A DNA stretch of 61,531 nucleotides from Alphaproteobacteria bacterium UBA3760 (GCA_002371155.1 DFGC01000012.1:1-61531); one strand, 5' to 3'; shown: positions 1 to 61,509, numbered from the stretch's first letter. Translations and numbers: made by a program. The notes: generated by a model from the letters alone, not told the origin.

Positions 1-99
1 AACTGGGGAAAATCATGAAAAAATTGCGTATGTTCGATTCGTTAAAATTTGTGTTGGCGACCGTCGCGTGCACATTTATATTAAATGTCGCGCACGCGG
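1..99 (+). repeat. Inverted repeat copy 1 (RBS plus signal-peptide coding leader), partner at 61425..61523
   Basis: Manual alignment to reverse complement of the window end: about 14 mismatches in 99 nt, no gaps. Confidence 0.85.
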
Positions 100-1760
100 A
101 TGAAACGTGTGACACGCATTGGGAAAATTATGTTTCGGCCACGGGAACCGTTAGTCAAAATGGCACCCCGACACCAACAAATCCAATTGAACCAAAATTT
201 TATACCCAGGGAGAAATGGTTCTGCGTGCGGTTGGTAATGTTGCCGATTCATACGATGCCACAACTGGCAAAATCACCCGGCGTATTGGTGTCAAAGTGT
301 TTAATGGAACTGAAAGTTGGGGTATTAGTGAGATGTATTCTGGGACGTATAGGACATTTTGGCTGTATCCAGATGAAATAGGGGCCGTTAGGGTAACCAG
401 TAATATAAAAGCCCCAGTGCTTAGCAATTATTTTTCTGCGGCACCGATTGCGGGCGCCAACAATGCAACACAACGAGATAATACAATAAGCACAAATTCA
501 GTTGCACATTCACCTAATTCGACTTGGATTCGCACAAATGATTTTTCAACCGTGTCAGAGTTTAAATCATGGTTAAGTGCGCGTCATGCCGCAGGAAAAC
601 CGGTTGTTATGTATTATCAGTTGGCAACACCAGTGGAAGAAGATTGGACATCGACGCAGTATTGTGTTGAACCAATAAAAATCGCGACGACAAAATATAA
701 CGAACAACAATTTGCACCGGTGGAAACGGATTTAGATGCGGCGGTTGCGGCGGTGGATACTGTCGTGACCCAGACGATGACCCAGGCACAGCAAATAGAC
801 CAAATCGCGAATGAAAAACAAACCCGCCCAGATGAGTCTTGTCCGCCGTTCAAAAAATGTTTGCTGGTCGAGGACGAGGACGGCACGCCGCATTGGTATG
901 AAATATACGACCCGATAAACGATTTTTTAAGACCGATTTTGGCGGCGGCGGCATTGTCGGGCAACCAAGGCGCACCAGTGCAAACATCGCACAGCGATGG
1001 TTCAAATACAATTATAGATACATCGAATATTTTTTATAACGGCAGTGGCGCATTCAGGAAAAAATATATAGATAACAGCACATCGGCGGCCGATCGTCCG
1101 TTTGGTCCGACAACATTGGACCGGTGTGCGGATAATGCGACACGAACAACATCAACGGTAGATGCGGGGTTGTGTTATAATACGGGCGGAATGTTCCGCA
1201 CACTTACCGAGGGTTCGGATGACGATGCGGGTGAATGGGCATTGGTGTGGAACGGAAATGAGGGTGGCGAGAACTTAGGCATAACGCCGGGTGTGGTGTA
1301 TGGCGTTGCGAAATGCACATCGGTTGGACAACACACAACAGAAATAACCGGTGATGTGCAATCGGGGTCGGAATATTGGTGGCCGAAAAAATTAAATAAT
1401 TATGCGACATCGAATCCGACAACATTGGCGAGTTTGATAACCGAATACCCAAATTCAAATATCGAAACGGTATTTAATCAGCTGCCAAACCCGTATGGGA
1501 CCGAGGATAATCCGGAATACCCACGTGCGAACTATCGTAATTGTTGGTGCAAAATGACGGCGATAGGTGTGCCCGGTTCGGGTGATGATTTTGCCGAGCA
1601 AGCCGCCAATGGTTCAATAATGTCGGTTGCCGGGGGCGGTTGGGTCTTTGACGGCCCGAACACGTCGGCGACGGATTGTGCGCGCATCTGCGCGTACAAC
1701 TGCGCGTACCGCGTTCGGGCTGCCGCCGCGTTCCGCAAAAATGTTTTAACCGTGAGATAA
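15..1760 (+). CDS. Secreted modular protein: signal peptide, phage minor-tail-like N domain, conserved KIATTKY/coiled-coil core, Cys-rich C domain
   Basis: 581 aa ORF, RBS GGGGA, signal ending VAHA; motifs NGTPTP, ITRRIGVKVFNGTESW, FKSWL...YYQLATP resemble siphophage tail proteins; core shared with 60037..61509. Confidence 0.8.
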   Translation: MKKLRMFDSLKFVLATVACTFILNVAHADETCDTHWENYVSATGTVSQNGTPTPTNPIEPKFYTQGEMVLRAVGNVADSYDATTGKITRRIGVKVFNGTESWGISEMYSGTYRTFWLYPDEIGAVRVTSNIKAPVLSNYFSAAPIAGANNATQRDNTISTNSVAHSPNSTWIRTNDFSTVSEFKSWLSARHAAGKPVVMYYQLATPVEEDWTSTQYCVEPIKIATTKYNEQQFAPVETDLDAAVAAVDTVVTQTMTQAQQIDQIANEKQTRPDESCPPFKKCLLVEDEDGTPHWYEIYDPINDFLRPILAAAALSGNQGAPVQTSHSDGSNTIIDTSNIFYNGSGAFRKKYIDNSTSAADRPFGPTTLDRCADNATRTTSTVDAGLCYNTGGMFRTLTEGSDDDAGEWALVWNGNEGGENLGITPGVVYGVAKCTSVGQHTTEITGDVQSGSEYWWPKKLNNYATSNPTTLASLITEYPNSNIETVFNQLPNPYGTEDNPEYPRANYRNCWCKMTAIGVPGSGDDFAEQAANGSIMSVAGGGWVFDGPNTSATDCARICAYNCAYRVRAAAAFRKNVLTVR

Positions 1761-13204: not shown

Positions 13205-15505
13205 TTATTCTGATTCCGATTTATTAAAATCCACATAGTTGCCTAAAATATTTCCCATTGTGCCACCCGCCGCACCAATACCAACCGCACCCAATCCGGT
13301 ATCTATACGATTTTGTGTATTGGTTGCATCATCGGCAATACGCGATATATCGTTTGGATTTCCAACCGACGCACGATAAAGCGATGCATATGTTCCATTT
13401 TGCACACCCGACCCAACATCATCATATAAACCGGTATATTCGCGTTTGAATACAACCGCCGATTCAATTCCCGGCGCATATCCCAATGCATCTTTGCGTT
13501 CATGCAAATCATCCGCCAACGCAACATATTCGCTGTATAAACCCGTCAAAGCATTTTCGCCACCAACATTTACCGATTTTTCATTAAAACGATACCGCCG
13601 CCCACCAACACGACATTGCATTTTTTGTGTATATGCCGCCATATCCGCCGCCGCCGCGGCGTCCGCCGATTGTGCCGCCAAACCAGACGCCAATTGCATC
13701 CCACCAATTCCCGTCGCCCCAATCGTCGCACCCGACATCAGACGGTTTTTCAACGACATTTCGTTTTCCCGCGCAGACGCATATTCTTCTTCGGCGGCAC
13801 GAATACCATCATCAACACACGCGCCGTTTTCCAAACGATACCCGCGCGCACAGTGCACCGGACGACACACACCATTTACAAATTCGAACCTGTCCGCATT
13901 TGGAAATTGTGCTTTTTCTGATTCATTACATTCGGTCCTGGGTTTTTCCGCGCTTTTCCATTTTGCAACCAAAGTTTTTTTACCACCATTGTTTTCATCA
14001 AACATAAAAGTCCTTTGCGGATTAACACACGCCGCGTCAACACACCAACCATCAAAAACATAACCCGATCGCTGGGGTTCGCAATCAACCGTAAATTGTT
14101 GCCCCACGATATAATTTTTGGGTGCATTATCACAACCGGTTCCACCGCCCAAGTTATAATTTATTGCATAGACCTCTTCTTCGGGTGCCTCTTGCTCTGA
14201 ACTCGCCTGATTTGTTATTACACTGGTATCACCCGCCTTGCACGTTGGATTAAACGAATTTTCATTTGCATCGGGAACAAAGCCTGGCTCACACCATGTC
14301 CTGTAATTACACTGGGATTGGCCATCACTGCCGACCAATTCGCATTTTGCTTTTGCCCCAGGCGCACATTCCGCACATGCAACACACTCACCATTTTGCA
14401 ATATATAACCATTCTGACAAGATTTCGGACGACACACACCACCTACAAATTCGAATTCTTTTACATTTGAAAATTTTGCTTTTTCTTCATCGCTACACTC
14501 TCTTCTCTCTTTTGCTACCGCCGTCCATTTTGCATAAAATGTTTTATCACCCATATCCGTGTCGCCAATCACACGATTCTTTTGTGGGTCATTCAAATCA
14601 TTTGTCGTACACCATCCATCAAAAACAAATTCTGATTTGGTTGGTTGACATTCAATCTTTGTCTGTGCCCCATATGTATGGGTCAAACTGTCGCACCCAT
14701 TCCCACCATTTAAATTTAATGTTATTTGATACATATTTGGTGAACACGACGGATTGTATTTACCGGCATTCTGTTCGTTTCCATATCCGGTCTCGCACGA
14801 TGTTTTATATCGACAATTTTTCAACCCATCACTGCCGGTCATTTCACAATTTGCATGCGTCGGCGAACATGATTGACATGGAACACATACCGCATCATCC
14901 GTATTATCATGTTCCAACACATACCCAGAAACACACTTTGTCGGCATACAAATCACATCTGTATTCTTATCTAAATCTTGGGTATGCGCTCTATTCAATT
15001 CGTGATTTATGCCTGATTGCGCATTTAACCGACCCAATTCTGACTCTGTACATTTATTGTCAGATTTCACACAATCATCTGTTGTAATCGTAATCCCATT
15101 CAAAGTATGCTTTTTCAATTCATATCCAGATTTACAAAAACTTTCATGCCGACAAATTCCTTTGGAACGCGTTGGTCTGCCCATTGAATCCTTGTAATAA
15201 GACAAATAATATCCGTTTTCGTTTCTGCACGATTTTCTGACACAGGTTAAAACATTCTTGCCATTATTTTTTTGTATCTGACATGTTCCTGTTTTTGTGT
15301 TATCACTGCATGAATCGCCATTTTTTTTACCAACACACAATTTATCATTCATACCACCACCAGATTGCGCCCCCGAATACCCGGTTTCTATTCCGCTGGC
15401 ATTCACTGTTCTGGTTGGCCCGCTGTTTGTATTTGCGGCATACACGCCACCAACGCAAAATGCGCAAAACACAAACGCGACAAAAACGCGACAAATGCGA
15501 AACAT
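13205..15505 (-). CDS. Secreted Cys-rich surface protein with two InlB B-repeat-like (Listeria-Bacteroides) domains and conserved Gly-rich C-terminal module
   Basis: Signal MFRICRVF..VYA; ITLNLNGG..GYVFDGW..FYAKW motifs; CxPxxCxxGYxL repeats; C terminus shared with next gene. Confidence 0.8.
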   Translation of the reverse strand: MFRICRVFVAFVFCAFCVGGVYAANTNSGPTRTVNASGIETGYSGAQSGGGMNDKLCVGKKNGDSCSDNTKTGTCQIQKNNGKNVLTCVRKSCRNENGYYLSYYKDSMGRPTRSKGICRHESFCKSGYELKKHTLNGITITTDDCVKSDNKCTESELGRLNAQSGINHELNRAHTQDLDKNTDVICMPTKCVSGYVLEHDNTDDAVCVPCQSCSPTHANCEMTGSDGLKNCRYKTSCETGYGNEQNAGKYNPSCSPNMYQITLNLNGGNGCDSLTHTYGAQTKIECQPTKSEFVFDGWCTTNDLNDPQKNRVIGDTDMGDKTFYAKWTAVAKERRECSDEEKAKFSNVKEFEFVGGVCRPKSCQNGYILQNGECVACAECAPGAKAKCELVGSDGQSQCNYRTWCEPGFVPDANENSFNPTCKAGDTSVITNQASSEQEAPEEEVYAINYNLGGGTGCDNAPKNYIVGQQFTVDCEPQRSGYVFDGWCVDAACVNPQRTFMFDENNGGKKTLVAKWKSAEKPRTECNESEKAQFPNADRFEFVNGVCRPVHCARGYRLENGACVDDGIRAAEEEYASARENEMSLKNRLMSGATIGATGIGGMQLASGLAAQSADAAAAADMAAYTQKMQCRVGGRRYRFNEKSVNVGGENALTGLYSEYVALADDLHERKDALGYAPGIESAVVFKREYTGLYDDVGSGVQNGTYASLYRASVGNPNDISRIADDATNTQNRIDTGLGAVGIGAAGGTMGNILGNYVDFNKSESE
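13326..13795. repeat. 470-bp direct repeat copy 1 (partner 15674..16143)
   Basis: Ungapped, visually >90% identical, encodes EEEYASARENEMSLKN...ISRIADDA. Confidence 0.9.
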
Positions 15506-15567
15506 TTCCCCCTGCAATTCTATCAGAATTATTATATCACAAAACACACAATTTCCAAACGACGAAT

Positions 15568-18210
15568 TTATTGTTTATTTGGCCTATTTATTATCAAATT
15601 TCCACCAACACCGCTCGCCGCGCCGACGCCAGCCACCACCGCACCGGTCTTGATACGCGTTTCTGATTTTGCCGCATCATCGGCAATACGCGATATATCG
15701 TTTTCATTTCCAATCGACGCGCGATAAAGTGATGCATATGTTCCATTTTGCACACCCGACCCAACATCATCATATAAACCGGTATATTCGCGTTTGAATA
15801 CAACCGCCGATTCAATACCGGGCGCATATCCCAACGCGTCTTTGCGTTCATGCAAATCATCCGCCAACGCAACATATTCGCTGTATAAACCCGTCAAAGC
15901 ATTTTCACCACCAACATTTACCGATTTTTCATTAAAACGATACCGCCGCCCACCAACCCTGCATTGCATTTTTTGCGTGTACGCCGCCATATCCGCCGCC
16001 GCATCCACGTCCGCCGATTGTTCGGCAATCCCAGACGCCAATTGCATTCCACCAATTCCCGTCGCCCCAATCGCCGCACCCGACATCAGACGGTTTTTCA
16101 ACGACATTTCGTTTTCCCGCGCAGACGCATATTCTTCTTCGGCCCCCTTTACTTGTTCTTGTAATTTTTTATCGACGCAAACACCGCGACGCAGTATAAA
16201 TTCATCACTTTCACATTCCGATGGCACACATTTTCCATCACGCACAACTAATGTTTTTGCGTGTAATGCAGATTTATTGACATCATCACACATCCAAACG
16301 CACTTGGTCGGATTTTTCGCATTATCAAATTTATATTCATCAATGCACTTTGTCGGAACACAGATTTCACCCCGCACCGCAACCGTTTCCGCATTCAACA
16401 AACCCGGTGCATTCGCATCACAAATTTCAACACACACGCCACTATCCAAATTATACCCATTGACACAATCCGTCGGAACACATTGATTTTCAATCCAATT
16501 TCCACTCGTCGCGTGTAAATTATTTAATTCCGTTGCGGAACATTCACGCGCAAATTTTGCGTGATATGTTTTTGCACCACTTGTCCCCGCCGCAATTTCA
16601 ATTTTAGATTGTGGCGAATCACAATTCGCATCATTTTCACACCAACCCAAAAAACGGAATCCATCGGCAACATCCGTTGGAACATGCTCTATCGTTATGC
16701 CCCTATCATACGCATATTCATAAGTTTTTGATTGTGTTCCACCCGCACCATTATTCCATGACAAAGTAATTTGATATGTTTTGGCATTTGTGCAATATGC
16801 ATTATACGCCCCACTATTCACAATTGTTTCATATCCGGTTTTGCATGCCGTTTCATAATGACATTGCTCATTCACCATACTTAAAACACATGTTGCATTT
16901 GTATTATCTTTGCACGGCAAACAACACAATTTGCCTCCCGTCAGTTCATATTCACCAACACACCCCGTCGGGACACATTGATTATTTTCTGGGCGACCAT
17001 TTAACGCATGCAATCCCGCCAAAACATCCGCGCTGCAAATTTCAACACACACCGCATCATCCGTTCCACCCTTTTCCAAACGATATCCGTCTTTGCACTC
17101 CGTCGGGACACATGGCAACCCTGGTTTTTGCGCTGTTTTCTTTCTTCCTTTCTTTGCATGCAACCGTTTCAAAAAATCATCATTACAAGCATTCTCAACA
17201 ACCAGCGCTTCAACCACATTCTTTTTGATAACCGGTTCTGGTTCCAAATTTATTGTTAAATTTTCACCACAATTTACAATCTGACTTTTATACGTTGAAA
17301 ACCCTACTTGTAATTTGCAATTACTTGGGACATTACTATCCTTAAAATCAAATTTTCCGTCAATATCCGTAGGATGCACCCTGCCAGACGTTCCGGATAA
17401 CTTATCACCGTTTTCATCAACAAAAAATACCGTTGCCCCAGGCAACCCTACCCCATCTTCATCCAACACAACACCACTGACCCGTATTGTTCCGGTCCCC
17501 GTCCGCGCACTGGACGCACCACGCGCCACAACATTTCTGGTATTCTCAACACTTTCTGATTTTTTTGTTTCAACCTTCTTATCGTCCGATTTTAATTGTT
17601 CGGTTGAATTTGACTTTTGTTCCGTATTCGTATTTTCCGATTCCGTGGGCGCAACCGTCGCCACACTTGCGGATTTCTGTGCTGTGGGCGCACTTTCTGT
17701 CTTTGCCGGTTTTTTCGCCGATTCAGGATGCAATTCCGCATATGTTTTTACGCCTTTTTCAATCAACAATTTTTCTATATTTTTACACGGTTTATCATAT
17801 CCATCGCTTTGTCCTTGTTCATTCTTACTTGTACACACCGAATCATTATTTATATGCTCGCGAACAAAGTCCAACAATGTGCCTTTTTTTGTTCCAAACC
17901 CCTGCACAACGGGATAATTTATCTCCGCATTTATATTCGCACCACGATTTACAAACTCTTCAACAATTTTATCACGTCTATTATTACCACAACATTCCGC
18001 AACAGCCAATTCTATTCCAGACATATTTTTATATGTCGGATTTGATATTTTTGCATTGAGCATCTCTGGGTTCTTGTTTAATAAATCCCGAACCCCAGAC
18101 ACATCATCACGCATAATCGCTTTTTCCAAACTAACCGATGCGCCCAACACCGGCGCATGAAACGCGCACACGGCAATCATTATAAAAAAAGCACGATAAA
18201 AACGACCCAT
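15568..18210 (-). CDS. Secreted protein: ankyrin-like N domain, carboxypeptidase-regulatory-like domain, Cys-rich repeats, InlB B-repeat-like domain, conserved C-terminal module
   Basis: Signal peptide; NRGANINA; VSGVVLDEDGVGLPGATV..TDIDGKF; repeated CVPTxCxxxY; paralogue of 13205..15505. Confidence 0.8.
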   Translation of the reverse strand: MGRFYRAFFIMIAVCAFHAPVLGASVSLEKAIMRDDVSGVRDLLNKNPEMLNAKISNPTYKNMSGIELAVAECCGNNRRDKIVEEFVNRGANINAEINYPVVQGFGTKKGTLLDFVREHINNDSVCTSKNEQGQSDGYDKPCKNIEKLLIEKGVKTYAELHPESAKKPAKTESAPTAQKSASVATVAPTESENTNTEQKSNSTEQLKSDDKKVETKKSESVENTRNVVARGASSARTGTGTIRVSGVVLDEDGVGLPGATVFFVDENGDKLSGTSGRVHPTDIDGKFDFKDSNVPSNCKLQVGFSTYKSQIVNCGENLTINLEPEPVIKKNVVEALVVENACNDDFLKRLHAKKGRKKTAQKPGLPCVPTECKDGYRLEKGGTDDAVCVEICSADVLAGLHALNGRPENNQCVPTGCVGEYELTGGKLCCLPCKDNTNATCVLSMVNEQCHYETACKTGYETIVNSGAYNAYCTNAKTYQITLSWNNGAGGTQSKTYEYAYDRGITIEHVPTDVADGFRFLGWCENDANCDSPQSKIEIAAGTSGAKTYHAKFARECSATELNNLHATSGNWIENQCVPTDCVNGYNLDSGVCVEICDANAPGLLNAETVAVRGEICVPTKCIDEYKFDNAKNPTKCVWMCDDVNKSALHAKTLVVRDGKCVPSECESDEFILRRGVCVDKKLQEQVKGAEEEYASARENEMSLKNRLMSGAAIGATGIGGMQLASGIAEQSADVDAAADMAAYTQKMQCRVGGRRYRFNEKSVNVGGENALTGLYSEYVALADDLHERKDALGYAPGIESAVVFKREYTGLYDDVGSGVQNGTYASLYRASIGNENDISRIADDAAKSETRIKTGAVVAGVGAASGVGGNLIINRPNKQ
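15674..16143. repeat. 470-bp direct repeat copy 2
   Basis: See copy 1. Confidence 0.9.
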
Positions 18211-20752: not shown

Positions 20753-22808
20753 ATTTTACCGTTAATTCATCACCATGCACATCAACATACACCGTTGCGC
20801 CATCGGTAATCACGCCTGATAAAATCAAATCTGCGATTTTATCTTCGACGGCACTCATTATCAACCGTTTCAACGGTCGCGCACCAAACACCGCATCATA
20901 CCCGTGCGTTGCCAACCATTTGATTGCCGGCGCCGTCACATCCAATGTGATATTGCGTTCGGCTAAGCGACGCGACAAATTACGCAACTGGATTTTAACA
21001 ATGCCATCCATCACATCAGGTGCCAATTCATTAAAGAATAAAATATCATCTATTCTGTTTATGAATTCCGGCCGGAAATGTTTTTTCACCGCATCCATCG
21101 ATGGCAAATTACTGGTCATGATAATAATTGTGTTTGTGAAATTAACAACATGACCCTGACCATCGGTTAAACGACCATCATCCAGAATTTGTAAAAATAC
21201 ATTAAACACATCTGGATGCGCCTTTTCAATTTCATCAAACAACAACACCTGATACGGACGACGACGCACAGATTCCGTCAACACACCACCCGCATCATAC
21301 CCGACATATCCCGGGGGCGCACCAATTAAACGCGCAACCGAATGTGGTTCCATATATTCACTCATATCGATTCGGGTCATGGCCGTATCATCATTAAACA
21401 GATATTCCGCCAATGCTTTGGCAACCTCGGTCTTACCAACACCGGTTGGCCCCAAAAACATAAAACTGGCAATCGGACGACGCGGGTCAGACAATCCCGC
21501 GCGCGAACGCCGAATCGCACGCGCAATAACATTTAATGCGGCATCTTGCCCCACAACGCGTTTGCGCAATTCGTCCTCGATATTTAATAATTTCGATTGT
21601 TCTTCGGTGCTCAGTTTATCCGCCGGCACCCCGGTCCATTTACTGACCACCATGGCGATATGTTCCGGCAGCACCGTTTTATATTCGCGTGCATCCGCAT
21701 TCATCTTTTTTATTTTTTCAGTCAATTCTGGTATTTTTCCATATTGCAACGCAGATGCCTTTTCATAATCCCCGGTGCGCACCGCCGTTGCAACCTCGGC
21801 TTTTGCCGCATCCAATGCCGCCATTGCATCTGACAGGCCGCGCATTTTTTCTTGTTCTGCATGCCATGCATCGGTCAATTTTTTCGATTCTTCTTCGGTT
21901 TTTTTAATAAGGCTTTCCAATTCAACCAATCGCCGTTTTGATTCATCATCTTTTTCTTTTTTCAATGCCTGTTGTTCGATTTTTAATTGTTGCAAGCGTC
22001 TATCAACCTCGTCCAATGCATCTGGCTTAGACGATATTTCAATACGAACACGCGCAGCGGCCTCGTCAATCAAATCGATTGCTTTATCCGGCAAAAAACG
22101 GTCTGTGATATAACGATTAGACAATTTTACCGCCGACACCAATGCCGCATCAGAAATACGCACACCATGATGACCCTCATATTTTTCCTTTAATCCACGC
22201 AATATAGAAATCGTATCATCAACCGTTGGTTCTTCGACATATACGGGTTGAAAACGACGCGCCAACGCCGGGTCTTTTTCGATATACTGACGATATTCAT
22301 CCAATGTGGTCGCACCCAAACAGTGCAATTCACCACGCGCCAACATTGGTTTTAATAAATTTCCAGCGTCCATAGACCCCTCACCCTTGCCGGCACCGAC
22401 CATAGTATGCAATTCATCTATGAACAAAATAATTTGACCATTTGAATCTTTGACCGCCTTTAATATCGCCTTTAACCGGGCCTCGAATTGACCGCGATAC
22501 ATTGCGCCCGCCATCAACGCCCCCATATCCAGCGACAATAATTTTTTATTCTGCAAATTTTCCGGAATATCACGCGACACGATACGTTCCGCCAAACCTT
22601 CGACAATGGCGGTTTTTCCAACGCCCGGATTTCCAATCAAAACCGGATTATTTTTTGTTCGGCGCGATAAAACCTGGATAGTCCGACGAATTTCTTCATC
22701 GCGTCCAATAACCGGGTCCAATTTACCGTCCGCCGCCAGTTTTGTAAAATCAGTCGTATATTTTGCAATCGCCTGATCTGGCGTTTCATTCATTTCTTCT
22801 GGATTCAT
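20751..22808 (-). CDS. clpB: Chaperone ClpB lacking the N-terminal domain
   Basis: [28 protein letters not shown], middle coiled coil, [15 protein letters not shown]; start at MNPEE. Confidence 0.95.
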
Positions 22809-58933: not shown

Positions 58934-59214
58934 TCAAAATCTCTTTGTTTTTACTTGACTTTTTGTTTACATAAAACAACACCCCAGACCTATTTCGAAC
59001 GCACGCATCCGATTATAAATCTGTCAAAAAGTGCGGTTTTCTGTGTTTTTCCACTTTCCTTGTTTACACGGAAAGCAAAATTAGTATAAACATGAACTTT
59101 GAAATTGTCAAGCAAAATTCATTAAAAAACCGCCAATTTTTGGGTTGTTTTTTGATTCAGCCCCAAAAATCCGCGACATTTAATAAAAAGTGGCAGAAAT
59201 CCGCCACCCGCAAC

Positions 59215-60005
59215 ATCGTCATCCCGCGTGCCGGGGTGGGTATTCCGCCCCATCGGGGAGGGGAATATGGCTGCTTTTCCAACCCCACCCTTGCGGCGGG
59301 GTCGCAGAGCGCAAACATTTGTTTAGCGCGATGCGGGGGCGGGTATTCCTCCCCCGGGCGTCCCCTTCTTTCCCAAAGAAGGGGTGGCAGCCGCAGGCTG
59401 ACGGGGTAATTTGACACAATCCCATACACACCGGATGCCCGAACCTTTCACAACTACCTCCCCCCGCTAGCGCGGGGTACTCCTTCTTTCATAAAGAAGG
59501 AGAATATCCAAGTTCGACCATTTCATATTCCCCGTCTTTTACCGCCCCCGCGGAAAAGAAGGGGTGGATTGTGAGCAAAGCGAACAAGACGGGGCAGTTC
59601 AGTATAATCACACCCTCCCCGTCGCTGCGCGCCACCCCTCCACAGGAGGGGAATATGACTGCTTTTCCAACCCCGCCCTTGCCCGGGCCCCACGCAAATT
59701 CTTTGCGTGGGTGGATTCGGCGGGGTCGGCAAGACAATGTGAAACACTTGTCGAGCCGGGGGCGGGTATTCCTCCCCCGGGCGTCCCCTTCTTTCCCAAA
59801 GAAGGGGTGGCAGCCGCAGGCTGACGGGGTAATTTGACACAATCCCATACACACCGGATGCCCGAGCCTTTCACCCTCCCCGTCGCTGCGCGCCACCCCT
59901 CCTGTGGAGGGGAATATTCCGCCCCAATCGGGCCCCGCCGCGGCGCAATTTGCGACGGGTGGGTGGTGCCTGGGGAGGGGGACCAACGAAGTTGGTGGAG
60001 GGGGT
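59215..60005. repeat. GC-rich mosaic of REP-like palindromes including a 108-bp direct repeat (59335..59442 and 59758..59865)
   Basis: Recurrent ccttctttcccaaagaagg, caccctccccgtcgctgcgcgccacccctc, ggaggggaatat. Confidence 0.85.
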
Positions 60006-60036
60006 AAACAAAACACGAAACAATAACAAAAACAAA

Positions 60037-61509
60037 TTACATATCCGGGCCGGCGGTAAAAGTTCCCGTTCCCGCATTGGTAAAGAATTGCCCCGACACC
60101 ATATCATACATACCAACGACACCCGATGAATTTTTTGCCGGGATACCATTAAATACTAATTTATTATTATCGTTATATATTTTTACATATCTCCAAGAAG
60201 AACTACTTTTATTATAACTTGATGTTGTTTTGTCGTTATTTGTTTTACCTATCCACAAAGATAAATCTGAATTTGAAAAAGATTCTCCTGCCAAATTATT
60301 AGATTTTAATACATCATTTATATACAGCCCATCTTTTGTTATTTTATAATTATAAAACGTATTTGTTGTAACATCCAAATTTGATATAACTGCATTCATT
60401 CCGGTTCCACCTTTACCCCAAAACGAATGCCCAGAACTGTTTGCTAATCCAAATTGAGCTCCCCAAACAGTAGAACTCCAAATACCAGACCCCGCGCCAA
60501 AAAAATAATCCCCAGCCTTTGGAACAGACATTTCAAATTGAGCAGACCAATTCCAATTCGTGGCTACGATTCCGGTATCAATCCATGAATTTCCATCCGT
60601 TTGTAAATACTGCAATTCCGTGTATCCGGCGGGGAGTGCATGCGCGACACCATTTGCACCCGCAATCGGATACCAATGCGGGGTGCCGTCTTCATCCTCG
60701 ACCAATAAACAGTATTTCGCCGTGCATCCCTCGTCCGGGCGGGTTTGCTTTTCATTCGCAATTTGGTCTATTTGCTGCGCCTGACTCATCGTCTGGGTCA
60801 CGACAGTATCCACCGCCGCAACCGCCGCGTCTAAACGCGTTTCCACCGGCGCAAATTGTCGTTCGTTATACCGCGTCGTTGCAATTTTGATTGATACCGG
60901 CAGCCCCGCGATGAATTCACCCGTGCCCGCATTGGTATGAAACGCAGTTTCTGGATTTGCATCCGCCAAATCATACATACCCAACACACCATCGCTATCA
61001 CGCCGTGCCGGTATACCGTCAAATACTAAACTATCATTTTTTGAAGCCTTGTAATAGTAAATTTTAACATTTTTATTTTTATAATTAGTACCACTACTGT
61101 TGTTAAGATTAAATAAATACAACATAGAGGACCCCACCCTACCGTTTGTATATGTTGTGCCATTGGTTTCGTTCGTAAAATACCATCTGGTGTCCAAAAC
61201 ATTTTGCTTTATAATGTAAACCCCAGGTTCACTTGTACCATAACGCCTATCTTTTACACCTACCTGAGATGCACCGTTCACAAACATAAAACCTGATGAA
61301 TCATTCACAGTTTCAAATTTTAATTCCATATAATCAATCGTTGCTTCGTTCACATTAGTATTAATCCATTGTGTTCCGGTGGATTCGATGTATTCCAATT
61401 CGGTATATCCGGCGGGGAGTGTTGCCGCATGGGCGACATTTAATATAAACATGCATGTGACGGCCGCCAACACTAATTTTAACGAATCGAATATACGCAA
61501 AAATTCCAT
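60037..61509 (-). CDS. Secreted modular protein: signal peptide, two phage-tail/ConA-like 'LPAGYTELEY' domains flanking the KIATT core
   Basis: 490 aa; LPAGYTEL.Y...G..WI.T..., GIPA...G..GMYD...F.TNAGTG.F.AG twice; core shared with 15..1760. Confidence 0.82.
   Translation of the reverse strand: MEFLRIFDSLKLVLAAVTCMFILNVAHAATLPAGYTELEYIESTGTQWINTNVNEATIDYMELKFETVNDSSGFMFVNGASQVGVKDRRYGTSEPGVYIIKQNVLDTRWYFTNETNGTTYTNGRVGSSMLYLFNLNNSSGTNYKNKNVKIYYYKASKNDSLVFDGIPARRDSDGVLGMYDLADANPETAFHTNAGTGEFIAGLPVSIKIATTRYNERQFAPVETRLDAAVAAVDTVVTQTMSQAQQIDQIANEKQTRPDEGCTAKYCLLVEDEDGTPHWYPIAGANGVAHALPAGYTELQYLQTDGNSWIDTGIVATNWNWSAQFEMSVPKAGDYFFGAGSGIWSSTVWGAQFGLANSSGHSFWGKGGTGMNAVISNLDVTTNTFYNYKITKDGLYINDVLKSNNLAGESFSNSDLSLWIGKTNNDKTTSSYNKSSSSWRYVKIYNDNNKLVFNGIPAKNSSGVVGMYDMVSGQFFTNAGTGTFTAGPDM

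Follow-up and report, generated by a model that had tools for sequence, protein, structure and literature searches.

A mosaic module boundary in an undescribed adhesin-like protein family of gut bacteria, with lectin-like heads probably re-sorted between two positions

Introduction

When a short sequence recurs at two junctions of one gene, does it mark the place at which the domains of that gene are shuffled? This question is raised by gene pA, which lies on the minus strand at positions 60037 to 61509 of a 61,531-nucleotide (nt) stretch from Alphaproteobacteria bacterium UBA3760 (GCA_002371155.1 DFGC01000012.1:1-61531). The whole stretch is called the window here and is part of contig C7 of a genome of 864 kb in 19 contigs. 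An earlier note on this DNA had pointed out that the second domain of pA starts GVAHA-LPAGYTEL, echoing NVAHA-ATLPAGYTEL behind the leader, and that the gene starting at position 15 has the same string at its own leader junction. Both observations hold, with the strings of pA on its minus strand. The note went on to propose a domain-shuffling seam, at which modules are copied together with the VAHA junction and N-terminal heads are moved behind the core by recombination at this short sequence.

Of the proposed seam, a real module boundary in a shuffled family stands, but the crossovers do not lie at VAHA. The region 60600-60660, which on the minus strand reads ...PIAGANGVAHA-LPAGYTELQYLQ, is probably the meeting point of a constant core and its linker with the C-terminal module of a secreted, two-headed, lectin-like protein. 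The boundary is an ordinary mosaic boundary in an undescribed adhesin-like family.

Results

Gene pA encodes 490 amino acids (aa), arranged as a leader, a first LamG-like module, a helical core, a linker and a second LamG-like module. Its parts are as follows.

60037 to 61509, minus strand: gene pA, 490 aa
61426 to 61509, minus strand: leader MEFLRIFDSLKLVLAAVTCMFILNVAHA, aa 1-28, with an AXA site at its end; Sec-type by inspection and kept in at least 12 paralogues
60904 to 61419, minus strand: module 1, aa 31-202, LPAGYTELEY ... TNAGTGEFIAG; its interior type is also found in P0002, P0003 and P0016
60664 to 60891, minus strand: constant core IKIATTRYNE...KQTRPDEGC..CLLVEDEDGTPHWYPI, aa 207-282, with 15-16 copies in the genome
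60637 to 60663, minus strand: linker AGANGVAHA, aa 283-291, with the VAHA codons at 60637-60648
60568 to 60636, minus strand: first-strand block of module 2, LPAGYTELQYLQTDGNSWIDTGI; left crossover zone
60160 to 60579, minus strand: interior of module 2, its DNA 100% identical to that of P0001 (locus L014) from another strain
60040 to 60174, minus strand: last-strand block of module 2, IPAKNSSGVVGMYDMVSGQFFTNAGTGTFTAGPDM; right crossover zone, with tail types found at both positions

By inspection, the leader consists of the n-region MEFLRIFDSLK and the h-region LVLAAVTCMFIL, followed by NVAHA|A. The leader junction (~61395-61440) reads ILNVAHA-ATLPAGYTELEY, and module 1 opens with the same ATLPAGYTELEY and runs to TNAGTGEFIAG. 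In the translated minus strand, the core runs IKIATTRYNE...KQTRPDEGCTAKYCLLVEDEDGTPHWYPI and module 2 reads LPAGYTELQY...TNAGTGTFTAGPDM.

Module interiors were compared among 136 modules from 120 homologues and the genome's paralogues, with 22 residues trimmed at the start and 42 at the end. The interiors of P0108, at the N position, and P0111, at the C position, are 98.4% identical over 126 residues. Their identity begins at LP, and the sequences upstream are unrelated, with a leader ending in IVPAYAA in P0108 and a linker ending in IVERYSL in P0111. Altogether, 17 pairs of N- and C-positioned modules exceed 70% identity, and they include N-modules of the genome's C5 and C9 genes paired with C-modules of another species. 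P0007 (N) and P0011 (C), both within the species of pA, are 81% identical, and the C5 gene (N) and P0040 (C) are 80% identical. On a tree of the interiors, the N and C labels change 28 times, against 42-53 times in five shuffled values. Pairs of such high identity between unrelated flanks mean that the position swaps are real and that the junction residues do not travel with the module. The claim that N-terminal heads can move behind the core is thereby borne out.

The DNA of pA and P0001 is 100% identical over gene nt ~931-1350 (aa 311-450), with flanks of 67-90%. P0001 has VEYV in place of VAHA, differs in seven first-strand codons, ends in an 'N-type' tail (RRDSDGVLGMYDLAD...) and carries another N-module. 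On the other side of the interior, the first-strand block of pA resembles N-module starts. Over the 71 nt of 60568-60638, counted from 2 nt ahead of the L codon, its identity to the start in the C9 gene is 94%, and over 66 nt it is likewise 94% to the starts in both C5 genes. The likeness spans LP-2 to LP+68 only, where it stops at an I codon and gives way to complete divergence. Tract ends were mapped to LP+12 to LP+57, tail-59 to tail-80, LP-2, LP+68, HWY-75 in the core, LP-11 and LP-15. The crossovers are located in the core or in one of the conserved blocks that hold the first and last strands, and the claim of recombination at the short VAHA sequence fails on these tract ends, which fall inside the module or in the core. 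The tail types KNSSGVVGMYDMVSGQFF and RRDSDGVLGMYDLADxNPxTAFH were each found at both N and C positions. TELEY occurs in 21 of 22 post-leader junctions and TELQY in 27 of 35 post-linker junctions (Fisher p=3e-9). Since ELEY or ELQY tracks the position and not the module, most crossovers lie downstream of the first ten codons of the module, and not at VAHA. The family has the pattern that defines cassette exchange, namely a variable segment between conserved homology blocks and near-identical tracts in diverged flanks, and one module type may stand behind different linker alleles and carry different tails.

The three-residue spot in front of the C-terminal module was read in the seven LamG-class genes of the genome, where it is AHA once (in pA only), AHN in three genes and EYV in three. 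In the 45 junction-bearing proteins of the database and the genome, the linker alleles are VAHN, VAHA, VEYV and one VAHT; these proteins, with their ANGV-xxx-LP junction, evidently come from strains of the species of pA. The ANGV-xxx-LPxGY junction is absent from 60 related genomes, so that this genome is the only one to have it among 61, which include 36 species of the genus. The earlier note had itself named members without the motif at their domain boundaries as the observation that would count against it, and VAHA stands at one of the seven internal junctions of the genome and at none in the 60 related genomes. In other species the linkers are unrelated (IENIYG, VENAWD, IENICG, VERYSL, VTGR) and the leaders end in NAFSAN, PSWGA, PAVAAT and similar. 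The longest substring common to leader and linker is at most two residues in 53 of 58 unique pairs, and the five exceptions all come from the species of pA.

Within that species, the linker alleles and the modules are assorted freely. The 45 proteins carry 22 module types, and six of the 16 multi-member types stand behind more than one linker allele. VAHA precedes at least eight different module types, and the same module type is found behind VAHA, VAHN or VEYV. Together with the swaps behind unrelated linkers in other species, this contradicts the proposal that modules are copied together with their VAHA junction. The motif IAGAxxV is also present in genes with an unrelated C-domain, so the V of VAHA is part of an older linker motif, which leaves just three specific residues. 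VAHA thus appears to be one allele of a three-residue variable spot that ends the species-specific linker WYPI-AGANGV-xxx-LP, and it would stay on the core side and assort independently of the module that follows. The linkers of outgroup species, which might have pointed to the ancestral allele, cannot be aligned.

The likeness at the DNA level is smaller than it seems. TGTCGCNCANGC occurs three times in the window, at 86-97 (plus), 60638-60649 (minus) and 61427-61438 (minus), versus 0.05 expected from shuffles, a comparison that overstates the likeness because two of the three matches are paralogous leaders, because a DNA match adds no independent evidence to that of the amino acids, and because nothing separates the internal VAHA from L-P, which puts it two codons out of register with VAHA-AT-LP in the leader. 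Anchored on L-P, copying of the leader junction would require an additional deletion of 6 nt. While the likeness of LPAGYTEL between the two junctions is true homology, between two copies of one module, that of VAHA is weak. When linker residues were shuffled, a substring of at least four residues was shared with the leader end in 15% of trials. The likeness of VAHA to the AXA site of the leader is most likely a coincidence between two Ala-rich peptides, and at most the footprint of a short ectopic conversion patch.

The raw GC content is 0.54-0.58 in the core versus 0.20-0.40 in module interiors. The earlier description of GC-rich, conserved domain ends and AT-rich, divergent interiors is confirmed and becomes sharper at 4-fold sites, where GC is as follows.

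Core: 0.80
Leader: 0.69
First block of module: 0.59
Last block of module: 0.55
Module interior: 0.27
Genome (long open reading frames): 0.50

GC at the second codon position is 0.41-0.45 in the core and the module blocks, and because it is alike across segments, amino-acid composition is not the cause of the contrast. A 4-fold GC of at least 0.80 was reached by 0.12% of 2,510 windows of 75 codons from other genes, and 1.5% of 130-codon windows fell to 0.27. Two other species of the genus, with 13 and 17 copies, have 4-fold GC of 0.74 and 0.79 in the core and 0.21 and 0.20 in the interior, respectively. In a species with two copies (genome G025; L020, L024), the core is at 0.30 (64 sites), whereas the three species that have 13-17 copies are at 0.74-0.80. 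A generic effect of GC-biased gene conversion was checked on another shared module of the window (13205-18210), whose 4-fold GC of 0.48-0.56 is the genome average, and a general effect of biased conversion is thus not shown.

An AlphaFold2 model of pA was built on 62 homologues (mean predicted local distance difference test, pLDDT, 74). It consists of two beta-sandwiches joined by a long helix (residues 211-252), with pLDDT highest (>90) at the module ends, that is in the first and last strands of each sandwich, and lowest (<50) at residues 283-286 in the linker. Foldseek against the PDB matched both sandwiches to laminin-G, neurexin LNS, agrin, pentraxin and CBM66 domains with a probability of 1.0 and target-normalised TM-scores of 0.5-0.58 (agrin G3, laminin alpha2 LG5, PTX3, CBM66, neurexin LNS). 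By this structure comparison of the model, the modules have the concanavalin-A-like lectin fold, a two-sheet jelly-roll beta-sandwich of ~180-200 residues. Neither pA nor pB, the gene at position 15, matched a Pfam family at E<=1, a PHROG or an NCBIfam model, and neither found a relative by sequence search of the PDB. The curated sequence models Laminin_G_1/2/3 and Pentaxin of Pfam were not matched by the pA modules. The family may have an adhesin or lectin function.

Module 2 alone retrieved 10,217 representative clusters with phmmer at E<=1e-3, many of them containing proteins with 4-10 tandem copies. In such arrays, the ...GTGxFxxGP of one copy directly precedes the LPxGYxxxEYIESTGTQ of the next. 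The module signature is LPxGYTxLEYIESTGTQYIDTG ... GxYDxVxxxFxTNxGTGxFxxG, in which the conserved first strand reads LPAGYTELxY and then (I/L)(E/Q)STGxQ(Y/W)IDTG. LPAGYTEL is a generic mark of the N-terminus of a LamG-like module that is widespread and lacks a curated family model. It occurs twice in pA because pA has two copies of the module, one behind the signal peptide and one behind the core. Outside the lineage, in P0121 (2513 aa) and similar proteins, long arrays of the module are accompanied by Listeria-Bacteroides repeats (10 stretches of Pfam Flg_new). This combination suggests proteins on the cell surface of gut bacteria, either Gram-positive ones or Bacteroidota.

The family is represented a second time in the window, by the paralogue pB.

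15 to 1760, plus strand: paralogue pB, with a leader as in pA ending in NVAHA, a non-lectin head, the common core and a Cys-rich C-domain after the linker EIYDPINDFL

The string TGTCGCGCACGC at 86-97 codes for NVAHA|DETC in pB, whose head is unrelated to that of pA. In the genome there are 15-16 core-bearing genes, which are chromosomal and dispersed among housekeeping genes, with many at contig ends. The end of the core and the linker vary with the class of the C-terminal domain. WYPI-AGANGV-xxx precedes the LamG-like module (7 genes), WYEI-YDPINDFL the Cys-rich domain (3 genes) and WYEI-AGADAV-QSSS the repeat-rich tail (5 genes). The linkers of the LamG and repeat-tail classes (the latter IAGADAVQSS) have IAGAxxV in common and are identical in 17 of 21 nt. 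All complete members have their own leaders, and the leaderless ones (C3, the C4 gene ending at 21024, and C11) are truncated where their contigs end. Named homologues in the database come from metagenome-assembled genomes labelled Alphaproteobacteria or Proteobacteria.

Within the genus, the KIATT core was matched in four of 37 genomes, with 16, 13, 17 and two copies, by a search whose filter may overlook distant copies. The core is patchily distributed and, in some genomes, greatly expanded. A giant open frame of 6219 aa on the minus strand of G000:C18 (~26.8-45.5 kb) ends in a LamG-like module (LPAGYTEVEYIQSNGSQY ... FFGNSAGTGTITAGPNK), so that a very large protein of this genome also has the module as its tip. 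Downstream of pA, a GC-rich palindromic mosaic at 59150-60030 of the window belongs to a dispersed repeat family found in 78 BLAST pieces on 14 of the 19 contigs. Its copies often adjoin family genes or contig ends (C18 40249-40973, C7 61979-62442, C9 86378-86598, C10 182-361, C3 14928-15502). Runs of N, which mask the upstream regions of the genes concerned, also adjoin family genes in G000, mostly just upstream of the leader (C7 61532-61749, C18 39967-40169, C16 34610-34706, C11 176-310, C4 5848-6028, C3 15105-15258). Two related contigs from other strains have phage-like genes (Phage_Bbp19, head-tail connector) at L012 6935-7536 and L013 4045-4646, ~2.6 kb away from a family gene.

Discussion

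From the anatomy of the genes, the distribution of alleles, the identical tracts and the position swaps, we infer that module interiors are exchanged as cassettes, via homologous recombination of the RecA type or gene conversion. Partners would be paralogues, other strains, and the N and C positions, and homology would be provided by a conserved block of ~70 nt on the 5' side, another of ~120 nt on the 3' side, and the core. With the first strand, the last strand and the core as homology blocks, crossovers fall from LP onwards, and what lies upstream of a module stays with its position. Constraint at the protein level may keep the conserved blocks alike, with occasional exchange making use of them. 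RecA is encoded in the genome at G000:C6:78681-79463 (E=1e-139).

Other routes to the same pattern were considered. No reverse transcriptase (PF00078) was found in the 97%-complete genome, a search in which control genomes matched, and a diversity-generating retroelement is rejected, as the interiors also differ wholesale rather than at adenines. Constraint by the fold alone, without recombination, is rejected by the 100%-identical tract in diverged flanks and by the N/C pair of 98% identity. Ongoing homogenisation of the core is unsupported, with paralogue cores 89% identical in protein and 74% at 4-fold sites.

Several observations weigh against cassette exchange with VAHA as a bystander. 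Breakpoints were mapped on about two dozen genes, versus at least 940 known members, and the extreme synonymous GC contrast is unexplained by this account. The remaining points concern the origin of VAHA, which may instead have arisen once, by short ectopic gene conversion from the leader/N-module junction into the internal junction. At least xCA CTC CCC GCC GGA would have been copied, possibly also GTC GCx CAT GC, with a loss of 6 nt. The patch would record past N-to-C exchange and would not serve as a recombination site. Such a patch is suggested by the codons, as all five VAHA alleles sampled at the DNA level read GCA CTC CCC, versus AAY CTG/TTA in VAHN and GTT TTA in VEYV. CTC, which none of the eight VAHN and VEYV junctions has, is the commonest Leu codon on the leader side (10 of 15), and the internal LPAGY of pA has the leader-type GCC. 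It would also agree with the 94% identity of LP-2 to LP+68 to the C9 and C5 N-module starts, with VAHT-L in P0035, which a leader-type ACA CTC patch would yield, and with the rarity of a chance match, as only 0.5% of random triplets placed behind a fixed V gave a leader 4-mer. Moreover, the NVAHA leader end and the internal VAH linker were both seen in the clade of pA's species only. What makes the patch unlikely all the same is the additional in-frame 6-nt deletion, the presence of VAH before N in alleles without leader-like codons, by which VAH predates any such patch, and the three single-base changes that suffice to turn VEYV into VAHA (GAA>GCA, TAT>CAT, GTT>GCT). The V in the older IAGAxxV motif and the equal match length in 15% of shuffled linkers count in the same direction.

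Far less probable is that GTCGCNCAYGC itself recombines and carries heads behind the core, although both junctions of pA have the motif, as does the leader junction of pB. Similarity of N-terminal heads does stop at the leader end, non-lectin heads diverge right after AHA, and tracts of the C5 and C9 N-modules start at LP-15. This is outweighed by the lack of VAHA at six of seven internal junctions in the genome and at all those in other species, by the unrelated junctions of the 98% identical N/C pair and by single modules behind several linker alleles. Tract ends are scattered over the core, the linker, the first-strand block and the tail block, and the ELEY/ELQY signature remains with the position. 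Least credible of all is that VAHA|L would act as a second AXA-type cleavage site, releasing the C-terminal lectin head from the core after export. Its AHA is an AXA motif identical to that of the leader and sits in the low-confidence, probably flexible linker (283-286). No hydrophobic h-region lies upstream of VAHA|L, however, this spot reads AHN or EYV in most paralogues, and the linkers of other species are unrelated. Exchange of interiors between conserved blocks, with VAHA left in place on the core side, is thus the reading retained here.

As to the synonymous contrast, the conserved blocks might be kept as GC-rich recombination substrates, by GC-biased conversion or selection, with AT-rich interiors that are fast-evolving or imported, so that the genes would form a built-in shuffling system. 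This is conceivable but doubtful. If true, a gut symbiont with a tiny genome would re-sort lectin heads between two display positions, and the within-gene split of 0.80 versus 0.27, in a genome at 0.50, would be the footprint of cassette shuffling. The split is very strong, could bear on whether biased gene conversion acts in bacteria, and is the single feature that deserves further work.

The short VAHA recombination seam does not hold and should not be carried forward. What results is a map of re-sorting in an undescribed family of secreted lectin-like proteins of gut bacteria, putatively placed in the Candidatus Enterousia group, a gut lineage of Alphaproteobacteria with reduced genomes (PMC12306168). 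It also provides practical module boundaries (LP... to ...GTGxFxxG) for a domain found in more than 10,000 protein clusters and lacking a curated model.

Compared with LamG, LNS and pentraxin domains, both heads of pA are modelled as the same beta-sandwich, with the first and last strands best modelled and best conserved; the module differs in having its own signature without membership in their sequence families. In mosaic phage tail fibres and receptor-binding proteins, distal binding domains are exchanged at short conserved junctions. The pA family is alike in exchanging binding domains at conserved junction sequences, but it is chromosomal and has no match to phage records or PHROGs. Module 2 found no match by tblastn among 50,697 phage records, and a recent phage origin of this module type is therefore unsupported.

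Variable cassettes between conserved homology blocks are also known from Neisseria pilE/pilS, Borrelia vlsE and Mycoplasma MgPa and vlhA. The pA family resembles them in its cassettes bounded by conserved blocks, its identical tracts in diverged flanks and its RecA. While systems like pilE/pilS have one expression site and silent promoterless cassettes, the members of the pA family that are seen whole are complete genes with their own leaders.

The MAT fibres of Bdellovibrio bacteriovorus form a large exported paralogous family as well, in which constant parts bear exchanged adhesive tips, some of them with a lectin fold (PMC10769870). They are trimeric beta-prism or beta-helix proteins of ~1,000 aa with one C-terminal tip, some with an S74 chaperone (PMC10769870). 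The two families have a common logic, that of a constant part combined with exchanged binding domains. The pA family differs in its size of ~500 aa, its short helical core, its heads at both ends and the swaps of these heads from one end to the other.

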